A stretch of 64,000 bases of DNA, from IMG/VR virus record IMGVR_UViG_3300036770_006434, positions 1 through 64,000 of that record. One strand, written 5' to 3'. Numbering within the stretch: the stretch's first letter is position 1; every line of letters starts with the position of its first letter. The DNA is from a virus. This document shows positions 41,851 to 43,902 of this stretch, piece by piece. The position numbers and the translations under genes were made by a program. The notes under the pieces are model-generated. The model was not told the origin of the DNA, did not search any database, and worked only from the letters and a program-made list of their open reading frames with translations.

Positions 41851-42025
41851 GCCGCACCTTCACCGCTTTCGCGCTGTCGCTGCGACCCATTGCCGGGCCG
41901 CAAACGTCCTCCAAGGGCTGCCGCATCTTCACCGCTTTCGCGAAGTCGCTGCGACGCCTCGTCTAAACTGACAAGGTTCCGTTGCGTTAGCCGCACTTTC
42001 ACCGCTTTCGCGAAGTCGCAGCGAC
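41851..42025 (-). CRISPR. mini CRISPR-like array: three 36-bp repeats, two spacers (33 and 34 bp)
   Basis: Repeats at 41851-41886, 41920-41955, 41990-42025; minus-strand consensus GTCGCAGCGACTTCGCGAAAGCGGTGAA(A/G)(G/A)TGCGGC; spacers unrelated to each other. Confidence 0.85.
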
Positions 42026-42039
42026 TTCGTTGTCACAAC

Positions 42040-43866
42040 TCACTTCGCTTCAGCATGTTCCATCCCATTCCGCGAGCGCCACTCGTTTCCGAGGTGCAGG
42101 ACTGGCTCCGCTTGGAGGATCGGTTTCCCAACCCATTCTACGGCAGATACCTGTGTGGCGCGAGCGCCTACGGGCAACTGTTCCTGCATTGCCGCGCTCG
42201 CGGCAGATGAAACACTGTTTTCACAATGAATAGACTGAGTCGCCTCAATCCGTTTCTGGTTCACGGGGACACCGCGTGACGAAAGATTTGATTCTTTCGT
42301 CACACACCTGCGTTTGCGGCCTCTCGTGAGTTTCCCCACGACAGACGTTGAACCAGACTTGCTGACCGGGTGCGTCCCGGCCGTTTCCTTATCCGTTTTG
42401 GCGGATTCCGAAATTTGTCGCTCAGTTTTTTGAGCAATTGCCTGCGCGGCCATGTAGTCGCGACCCCAAACGGACCCGCAGCAGGAGCACGTCCACTCTC
42501 GGACCGATGTATCCTTGGGGCCAGTTACGTTCTCGCACTTGATACAGGTGCGGGTCGTATAGGCTTCGTTTACTTGGACCACTGACTTTGGCGTAACACT
42601 GCGTTTGGCAAAATCCTTGAGAATACCCTCGAAGTTGGACACCGCGTTGTCGGCGTCCTTCCTGCGGGCTGCCGCGATTTCGCGCGCAGTCTTTCCGTCG
42701 CGATTCTTTTCGTGTATGGCCGCAAGTTCGCGCCCCTTGCAGTGACCGATTCCAACCGTATCAAACTGGGAAAGGATGCTCCGCGCGGACAGACGGTAAT
42801 GTTCCGTCCTGACGTTGGTCAGCCGACGGGTCATGTCGTTCATTTTACGTCGGGTCTCAATCATGCCCTTCGTCTTTTTCCAGATCAGTTTGACGCCGCG
42901 TTTGATAGACCCTTTTTCGTCGTAATTGGCGGGGTTGTTCTGCCGCATCTGTCGATCCAATTTGCGCTGTAACCGCGCTTGGCGGCGCATAAAGGCGGCG
43001 TTCCTGCAAATCGGTGGCGTCACATTGCCCTGAATCTCGCCGTCTGCCGAGCTGATGGTGATGGCGCTCGTCCGTCCGGGGTCTATGCCGGCGACCGCAC
43101 CGTTGGCGGAAGCGAAATTCTTTTGAGCCACCTCTTCCGGAACGTCCAAAAACAGGGATACGTGATAAACATCGTCCTGAACCGTGACGCCGACCTGCTT
43201 GACAACGGCTTCCTTGGGAACTTCTCGGTGCAATTTGATATCAACTCGGGAGCATGAATCTCCGAACAGGGCCGACAGATTCACTTTGTCCCCACGGATC
43301 AAGTCCAAAGCGTCCAGTCGATTGGCGGCCTGAAGGGTGCAAGAATCGCCAAAACGCTTGAATCGCGGCGCGCCCTTTTTGTTGGATGGATATTGGTCGG
43401 TAGAATCTGCAAACTTCGCCAAGATGGACTGCAAAAACGCGGACCCACCCGAAAAATCTCCCCGTTTGATACCGTTGGAAACCGTCTCCTTGGCATATGT
43501 GAGAGCCAGAGTGCGGATGGAGGCCCGCTTAGCCTTGGTCCCGTCCTTGCGCAAAATGGTATCGGCCTTTTTAAGAATCTTGCCGTTTAATTCCAGAATC
43601 GCTTCTTGGCGACTCTTGCCGGCGGCCAACATGTCGTTCAATATCTTGGCGCGGGCACCGGTATTTTTCTTCTCGGCCAGAATGGATTCAAGGTTTTTGA
43701 CGACTTCGGCCTTGCGACCGTGCGAGCATTCGGATTCCACCCATTTCATTGCGCCGACCAAAGCGTTCCAGACCTTGCGGGATTGGCGCTGGGCATCTCT
43801 GATAGCCGGAATTTGCCCATCATTTGGGTAAATCCTGTATTTGTAGATCAGCGTGGTAAGAGTCAC
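42040..43866 (-). CDS. TnpB/Cas12-like RNA-guided nuclease (608 aa), CRISPR-associated
   Basis: YKYRIYPN N-terminus, PRFKR, RuvC-I GIDPG (D262), canonical RuvC-II Glu replaced (VGIG374H), alternative Glu VNE434AYTT, Zn finger CIKC/CSCC, RuvC-III GRD470YMAA. Confidence 0.9.
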   Translation of the reverse strand: MTLTTLIYKYRIYPNDGQIPAIRDAQRQSRKVWNALVGAMKWVESECSHGRKAEVVKNLESILAEKKNTGARAKILNDMLAAGKSRQEAILELNGKILKKADTILRKDGTKAKRASIRTLALTYAKETVSNGIKRGDFSGGSAFLQSILAKFADSTDQYPSNKKGAPRFKRFGDSCTLQAANRLDALDLIRGDKVNLSALFGDSCSRVDIKLHREVPKEAVVKQVGVTVQDDVYHVSLFLDVPEEVAQKNFASANGAVAGIDPGRTSAITISSADGEIQGNVTPPICRNAAFMRRQARLQRKLDRQMRQNNPANYDEKGSIKRGVKLIWKKTKGMIETRRKMNDMTRRLTNVRTEHYRLSARSILSQFDTVGIGHCKGRELAAIHEKNRDGKTAREIAAARRKDADNAVSNFEGILKDFAKRSVTPKSVVQVNEAYTTRTCIKCENVTGPKDTSVREWTCSCCGSVWGRDYMAAQAIAQKTERQISESAKTDKETAGTHPVSKSGSTSVVGKLTRGRKRRCVTKESNLSSRGVPVNQKRIEATQSIHCENSVSSAASAAMQEQLPVGARATQVSAVEWVGKPILQAEPVLHLGNEWRSRNGMEHAEAK

Positions 43867-43874
43867 TTCCCACC

Positions 43875-43902
43875 ATTATACAAGAATTGTCCTTGGCGTC
43901 AA
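43875..43902 (-). promoter_or_regulatory. promoter TTGACG-N16-TATAAT, probably leaderless transcript of the effector
   Basis: -10 ends 8 nt before the GTG start. Confidence 0.7.

Follow-up and report, generated by a model that had tools for sequence, protein, structure and literature searches.

A compact effector gene of the TnpB family, followed on the same strand by a short CRISPR array, is located at positions 41,851 to 43,902 of the IMG/VR virus record IMGVR_UViG_3300036770_006434. We analysed this locus within a stretch of 64,000 nt (from here: the window), which constitutes the first 64 kb of a phage genome of 190,671 bp that is rated complete and possesses direct terminal repeats. The locus probably encodes a working RNA-guided DNA nuclease of the V-U/TranC kind, which is CRISPR-associated, TnpB-derived and carried by the phage as single-copy cargo. 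This reading is carried by the anatomy of the locus (Table 1), the membership of the effector in the TnpB family, arrays at homologous loci, covariation within a scaffold RNA, constraint on the nucleotides that encode the C-terminal tail, intact catalytic residues and the lack of adaptation and transposase genes.

An initial annotation of this DNA had described a TnpB-like effector of 608 aa with RuvC and zinc-finger motifs, three repeats of 36 bp with unique spacers of 33 and 34 bp beginning 14 bp after the stop codon on the same strand, and a near-consensus promoter. It had also noted repeat ends able to pair around an internal CGC-GAAA-GCG hairpin, and no cas1, cas2, cas4, Y1 or serine transposase gene in the window. 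This layout agrees with the coordinates found here, the proposed promoter spacing being right within 1 nt, and what we observe is a TnpB-derived effector on a phage, joined to a genuine CRISPR-like array and accompanied by no adaptation genes. Two features had been missed, a structured scaffold RNA within the 3′ part of the open reading frame (ORF), which resembles omegaRNA or tracrRNA (trans-activating CRISPR RNA), as well as a rearranged RuvC-II site.

Only 8 nt separate the −10 box from the GTG start codon of the effector gene; hence, the effector transcript is expected to be leaderless. The distance from the stop codon (42040–42042) to repeat 1 is 14 nt. By likeness to the guides of omegaRNAs (PMC10691335), the sequence that follows repeat 3 could be a terminal guide in the style of TnpB.

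Table 1 Features of the effector locus and its neighbourhood in the window
Feature	Position	Strand	Remark
Promoter TTGACG-16-TATAAT, sigma-70-like	43875–43902	−	11/12 matches
Effector ORF, 608 aa, GTG start	42040–43866	−	TnpB family
Structured core of the effector, aa 1–497	42376–43866	−	TnpB-like WED/REC/RuvC/zinc finger
Codon of D262	43081–43083	−	
Codon of E434 (alternative Glu)	42565–42567	−	
Codon of D470	42457–42459	−	
ORF tail, aa 498–608 and stop codon	42040–42375	−	predicted disordered; overlaps RNA scaffold
Conserved structured RNA scaffold, omegaRNA/tracrRNA-like	42026–42316	−	reaches repeat 1
Scaffold core with long-range GCGAGCG/CGCTCGC helix	42064–42210	−	covariation
Repeat 1, 36 nt	41990–42025	−	T at position 6; contiguous with scaffold
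Spacer 1, 34 nt	41956–41989	−	unique
Repeat 2, 36 nt	41920–41955	−	
Spacer 2, 33 nt	41887–41919	−	unique
Repeat 3, 36 nt	41851–41886	−	closed hairpin, z = −4.5
Sequence after repeat 3	41817–41850	−	putative TnpB-style terminal guide
HNH endonuclease gene	44190–44798	−	PHROG and Pfam HNH; directly upstream of effector
tRNA cluster, 9–10 genes (Arg, Leu ×2, Met, Gln, Val, Trp, Tyr, Gly and others)	45873–52015	−	

Effector protein and its catalytic site

Pfam searches with the effector yielded Cas12f1-like_TNB (4e-11), a helix-turn-helix domain (HTH_OrfB_IS605) and a weak OrfB_IS605 match, and the NCBIfam model guided_TnpB reached 101 bits, its cut-off being 100. The NCBIfam subtype models for IS200 TnpB, IS607 TnpB, C2c8 and Cas12f2 stayed far under their cut-offs. 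The hallmarks of the TnpB superfamily are present, i.e. the helix-turn-helix and WED parts, a RuvC domain split by a CxxC...CxxC zinc finger, and the TnpB fold. Modelling by AlphaFold2 together with 28 homologues was confident for aa 1–497 and predicted a disordered tail from aa 498 to 608, with a predicted local distance difference test (pLDDT) value of about 35.

The family to which this protein belongs is rare. Among 1.8 billion representative proteins, 41 matched below 1e-30, a word-indexed search of a collection of 5.8 billion clusters returned six relatives at E 1e-60 or better, and no close protein relative of the effector was found among the GenBank phages. A quick maximum-likelihood tree was computed, with support given by the Shimodaira-Hasegawa-like approximate likelihood ratio test (SH-aLRT) only. 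In this tree the family forms one clade (SH-aLRT 98) apart from the ordinary TnpBs, and its basal branches include loci with arrays. The nearest neighbours of the window in the tree are the loci L001 (a viral contig of 219 kb) and L002 (SH-aLRT 99). Of the comparison by profile models and phylogeny suggested in the initial annotation, the models place the effector within the TnpB family, and the quick tree shows its own family as a separate clade. Its proposal of a TnpB-to-Cas12 intermediate or a new type V lineage is borne out in so far as the locus fits the V-U/TranC kind. A new lineage is not demonstrable, since the captures V-U6 to V-U45 and TranC, some of them on phages, have already been described.

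The RuvC residues D262 and D470, the alternative E434 and the four zinc-finger cysteines are invariant or nearly so among the 28 homologues. At the position of the canonical RuvC-II glutamate there is a glycine, within VGIGHC in the effector and VGVGTW in its relatives. E434 itself is invariant in the 28 sequences and forms part of the NEAYTT strand, which precedes the zinc finger. A TnpB of 351 aa (P0014) exhibits the same RuvC-II pattern as the effector. By this arrangement the effector belongs to the RuvC-II-rearranged (RIIr) type (PMC10691335). The rearrangement is known for large clades of TnpB, which are predicted to be active (PMC10691335).

The missing canonical glutamate would also be expected of a DNA-binding silencer like Cas12m or Cas12c, in which binding to the target blocks transcription or replication without cutting, and the best single-sequence matches in the PDB were indeed Cas12m proteins (E 2e-7 and 4e-5), restricted to the RuvC/zinc-finger part. 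Nevertheless, such a mode of action appears very improbable to us. D262 and D470 are kept, and E434 is invariant in the family, as is the alternative glutamate in the RIIr clades predicted to be active (PMC10691335). Moreover, the modelled fold appears closer to active TnpBs than to Cas12m. The sequence similarity of the effector to PDB entries is limited to its RuvC/zinc-finger half, and the matches to Cas-lambda and CasPhi rank far under TnpB. MvCas12m from a myxophage (610 aa) was considered as a relative and rejected, its catalytic residues D305, E463 and D555 lying at different positions.

Repeat array, scaffold RNA and homologous loci

DNA could be analysed for 12 loci with an intact gene. 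Arrays are present at 8 of these, spread over the family tree, and the array-bearing homologues have protein identities of 33–46%. The arrays start at the stop codon or within a few nt of it, except for L006. Two repeats each were counted in L002 and L004, three plus a possible degenerate fourth in L040, and at least two each in L042 and L044 before the respective contig ends. L006, a viral contig of 73 kb, contains six repeats with spacers of 15–34 nt, and this array starts about 240–300 nt after the stop codon. The longest array belongs to L043 in a bacterial metagenome-assembled genome (MAG), with 15–16 repeats of 36 nt and spacers of 32–38 nt (L043:4233–5340). A single terminal unit was found in L001, L039 and L003, and no unit in the soil group L012–L015. 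The initial annotation had named homologues that never carry arrays or variable spacers as the observation that would speak against it; this is contradicted by the arrays, with differing spacers, in L002, L004, L006, L040 and L042–L044.

The repeat termini are related between the loci, running from GTCGC... to ...GCGGC, ...GCGAC or ...GTGAC. Most repeats of the homologues form closed hairpins with inner stems that differ in sequence between loci, and the spacers are unrelated across all loci. Array length shifts even between close relatives, e.g. two repeats in L004 versus one in L039. The MAG containing L043 possesses Cas1 genes at other loci (L046 and L047), where the array has a different repeat.

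Among homologues that share 33–46% protein identity and whose GC contents range between roughly 40% and 65%, the DNA encoding the tail is kept at the nucleotide level. An alignment of 11 tail sequences revealed invariant motifs, the long-range helix GCGAGCG/CGCTCGC and two further helices with compensatory changes. On the predicted scaffold structure, 85% of the cells pair, compared to 71% in column shuffles and 29–47% with slid partners, and 12 pairs showed double (compensatory) changes. None of 500 shuffles reached any of the observed measures, a count that is not a probability because related sequences can beat all shuffles without any structure; the slid control and the counts of pair types suffer less from this effect. 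With a covariance model built on the scaffold core, one copy was found in the window (42064–42204, 101 bits).

The codon positions tell the same region apart from the rest of the gene. Within the core, divergence at third codon positions is 0.48–0.67, about twice that at second positions. In the tail, the three positions diverge about equally (0.17–0.32) and below the synonymous sites of the core. This flat profile indicates that selection acts on the nucleotides of the tail and not on its peptide. In 10 of 11 members, no stop codon interrupts the reading frame through the scaffold until the first repeat is reached (the window with 42040–42375, L001, L002, L003, L004, L039, L040, L042, L043 and also the AT-rich L044), and L006 shows that translation of the scaffold region is not essential.

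A stretch of 15 nt at 42015–42029, made up of the final 4 nt of the scaffold and the initial 11 nt of repeat 1, is perfectly complementary to the opening of repeat 2 at 41941–41955. Owing to the single T/A difference at repeat position 6, the mismatch at the centre of a near-palindrome becomes a Watson-Crick pair in the heteroduplex of repeats 1 and 2. This complement could be an anti-repeat or, alternatively, a side effect of the repeat's 5′ half being nearly palindromic. A duplex search across the loci gave no common position for a consistent anti-repeat. In L003, a second full copy of the scaffold (80.6 bits) was observed upstream of the gene, in the reverse orientation, together with a weak copy inside the ORF, at 1828–1970 (−) and 3040–3175 (+). 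The L003 protein has 722 aa with an internal duplication, and this locus is rearranged or duplicated.

Targets of the two spacers were sought in several collections, the searches requiring exact 20-mers or covering small databases. Within the 190.7-kb genome no self-target was found with up to 8 mismatches. IMG/VR contained neither exact 20-mers of either spacer nor a match to a degenerate pattern of the repeat, and blastn of the array against GenBank phages gave only chance matches of 19–24 nt (E about 8). An exact 20-mer search of one genome per species covered 596 Gb, for which about one chance match is expected. Spacer 1 had no match there. For spacer 2, a 20/21-nt match was located in a LuxR-family gene of a Coriobacteriaceae MAG (L041:214–233). 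This candidate was rejected, as about one such match is expected by chance and no extension exists; it corresponds to the first 20 nt of the spacer and stops abruptly. The spacers of all homologous arrays gave nothing beyond chance against the homologous loci analysed and the phage, and the L043 array had no match in GenBank phages. Hence, the spacer search proposed in the initial annotation returned no credible protospacer from virus or species genomes.

Several of these observations weigh against a working CRISPR-associated nuclease. The array is tiny and its repeats are non-identical, which would also fit decay. No protospacer was found in the phage itself, among exact 20-mers in IMG/VR, in GenBank phages or in one genome per species; with none for either spacer, targeting and hence function are putative. 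The closest relatives L001 and L039 possess a single terminal unit, i.e. arrays are quickly gained or lost. In addition, the scaffold covariance model had no match in L006, the locus with the cleanest phage array, or in the array-less soil group L012–L019.

Part of this evidence could be accommodated if the array were vestigial, so that the locus would at most be a single-guide TnpB/omegaRNA system and the extra units, devoid of guide function, would be degenerating remains of a longer ancestral array or of tandem duplications. Compared with repeat 2, both repeat 1 and repeat 3 deviate at 3 of 36 positions, only one unit is present in the nearest relatives L001 and L039, no spacer target was found, and the basal branches carry arrays, so that the clade of the window looks reduced. 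Because of these basal arrays, the three repeats of the window may represent a reduced rather than a nascent array. Against decay as the whole explanation stands the structure of the repeats. Repeats 2 and 3 retain the closed hairpin with paired termini and the inner CGC-GAAA-GCG stem, repeat 3 with z = −4.5, and the differences between the repeats fall mostly on loop or bulge positions. Furthermore, arrays of two or three repeats recur independently in L002, L004 and L040. We therefore consider a vestigial array unlikely and retain the working nuclease as the preferred reading. The repeat sequence does not occur outside the array in the 190,671-bp genome.

It has been suggested that arrays downstream of TnpB-derived effectors may come from duplication of omegaRNA segments (PMC10691335). 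A doubtful extension of this idea, which we put forward with due reserve, is that arrays in phages are born and lost without Cas1-Cas2 by duplication and deletion of the terminal module of the omegaRNA. New guides would then arise via recombination or homing, the spacers would be former insertion flanks or rival alleles, and the scaffold would stay in the translated disordered tail.

Genomic setting and proposed mechanism

Both the effector gene and the CRISPR-like array are present in one copy in the complete 190.7-kb genome. Searches for Cas1, Cas2, Cas4, Y1 TnpA and serine recombinases returned zero matches in the window and in the whole genome, while control genomes did give matches. By the lack of a Y1 or resolvase match, the single copy in the complete genome and the three-unit array, the locus does not qualify as an autonomous or non-autonomous IS200/IS605 or IS607 element.

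The HNH gene beside the effector hints that selfish or mobile genes accumulate in this region. The 219-kb contig L001 and the window phage share several genes in common order, with the effector gene at different positions, and the two phages are only distantly related. These differing positions point to movement of the cassette or to independent acquisition. The gene downstream of the effector has no relatives in IMG/VR, and a related phage with an empty site was not found.

This neighbourhood invites a different interpretation, in which the locus is a homing or mobility module that cuts cassette-free alleles of related phages instead of serving in defence, and the spacers are sequences of empty sites. 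Such a module would be consistent with the shifted gene position in the two large phages, with a homing-type HNH endonuclease gene directly upstream and with the ancestral role of TnpB in transposon retention (PMC10691335). It is at odds with the single copy lacking TnpA and recognisable left and right transposon ends, with the failure to find a related phage with an empty site, and with the chromosomal array of 16 repeats in L043, which resembles a conventional CRISPR locus. We judge this interpretation to be quite improbable.

For the working nuclease, we infer the following course of events. From a single leaderless promoter, an effector mRNA would be transcribed that continues across the 3′ end region of the ORF and all three repeats. 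The RNA of 42026–42316 would fold as a scaffold ending in repeat 1, and the scaffold, repeat 1 and spacer 1 would, once processed, serve as a one-piece omegaRNA-like guide. The units of repeats 2 and 3 might provide further guides. These could be CRISPR RNAs (crRNAs) that pair with or replace the terminal module of the scaffold, which would then be used in trans as in the "functional RNA splitting" put forward for TranC, or they could be self-contained hairpin crRNAs. Indirect support for such a split comes from the covarying scaffold that precedes the array and from the 15-nt complementarity of the repeat 1 junction to repeat 2. The TnpB fold, with its enlarged helical lobe, zinc finger and RuvC domain (D262, E434, D470), would bind the guide RNA, recognise a 5′ target-adjacent or protospacer-adjacent motif (TAM/PAM) with a complementary protospacer, and cut the DNA. 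The phage would likely employ this activity in homing or to attack rival phages or other mobile elements.

Two observations concern the genome at large. A tRNA cluster, typical of large phages, is located 4–10 kb from the effector locus. The genome termini (window 1–154 and the genome end) are filled with tandem 12-nt units showing periods of 12 and 36, and the exact terminal repeat of the phage genome measures 88 bp.

Relation to known systems

The general concept behind this locus has been published, with repeated transitions from TnpB to Cas12, TranC and the mini type V loci of phages. We may be dealing with a new clade within this known kind, which offers a new example and testable material and no new principle. 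It is a compact, phage-borne, CRISPR-linked descendant of TnpB with a structured part of about 500 aa and a rearranged catalytic site; in the literature searched, we found no member of the rearranged-RuvC TnpB class tested as a CRISPR effector. Interest lies in the range of array sizes within the family, in a scaffold that overlaps a translated yet disordered tail, in a CRISPR-linked effector whose catalytic site is rearranged, and in the location on a phage. One small family with 1, 2, 3, 6 and 16 units constitutes a natural series for the growth and shrinkage of arrays without Cas1-Cas2, and the same series bears on whether an omegaRNA scaffold turns into a tracrRNA. In addition, one stretch of DNA that specifies a structured guide scaffold as well as the disordered tail of a protein is a clear case for the study of overlapping constraints.

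About 50 independent captures of TnpB by CRISPR have been inferred (V-U6 to V-U45; Altae-Tran et al. 2023, PMC10691335), and these are echoed in the 2025 classification (PMC12669027). Most of them have a downstream array and no other cas genes, and serial duplication of omegaRNA segments has been proposed as the origin of these arrays (PMC10691335). Many V-U and RIIr branches are known from metagenomes alone, some of them enriched in viruses (PMC10691335). The window locus matches the association that defines type V at the V-U level, a single RuvC effector that adjoins an array and keeps this association among its relatives. It resembles the V-U6 to V-U45 and RIIr systems in its TnpB-like effector and in an array that is located only downstream, plausibly derived from duplication of an omegaRNA segment (PMC10691335). 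The likeness to RIIr extends to the glycine in place of the RuvC-II glutamate, which is compensated by an alternative glutamate in the next strand (PMC10691335).

TranC (transposon-CRISPR intermediates), so named by Jin et al. (Cell 2025) and represented by the LaTranC structures 9jfo and 9jfq, is characterised in the citing account in PMC13565253 as an intermediate whose omegaRNA has been divided into a tracrRNA and a crRNA. A 2026 preprint reported TranC clades with 3–20 repeats of 32–38 nt and medians of 4–5 repeats, without adjacent cas genes and including a phage-borne member, CauTranC9 (bioRxiv 10.64898/2026.03.27.714800). A TnpB-like protein of IS605/IS607 descent that is linked to a CRISPR array, as defines TranC, is also what we find. 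Both have a compact TnpB-derived effector, a short downstream array, no cas1, cas2 or cas4 and a transposon-type scaffold RNA beside the array, and some are located on phages. The window locus differs from TranC by the rearranged RuvC-II site and by the position of the scaffold inside the translated disordered tail. For this latter feature there is a parallel in Cas12n (V-U4; RdCas12n, 9j09), whose tracrRNA is reported to lie within the region encoding an unstructured C-terminal tail (bioRxiv 10.64898/2026.03.27.714800).

The TnpBs of ISDra2 and ISFba1 (8exa, 8h1j, 8iaz) likewise have a scaffold over the 3′ end of the ORF that is followed by the guide. Compared to these, the structured core of the window effector is about 110 residues longer, mostly due to extra helices in the N-terminal lobe, and the locus has no TnpA and no transposon ends, exists in a single copy, and possesses several repeat-guide units and a rearranged RuvC-II site. 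With Cas12j/CasPhi and Cas-lambda of huge phages it shares the phage-borne single effector of type V, the short array and the absence of adaptation genes, whereas those effectors are larger at 700–800 aa, work with crRNA alone and are distant in structure. The locus fits the known V-U/TranC kind in every respect tested, and it is set beside the named clades by description.

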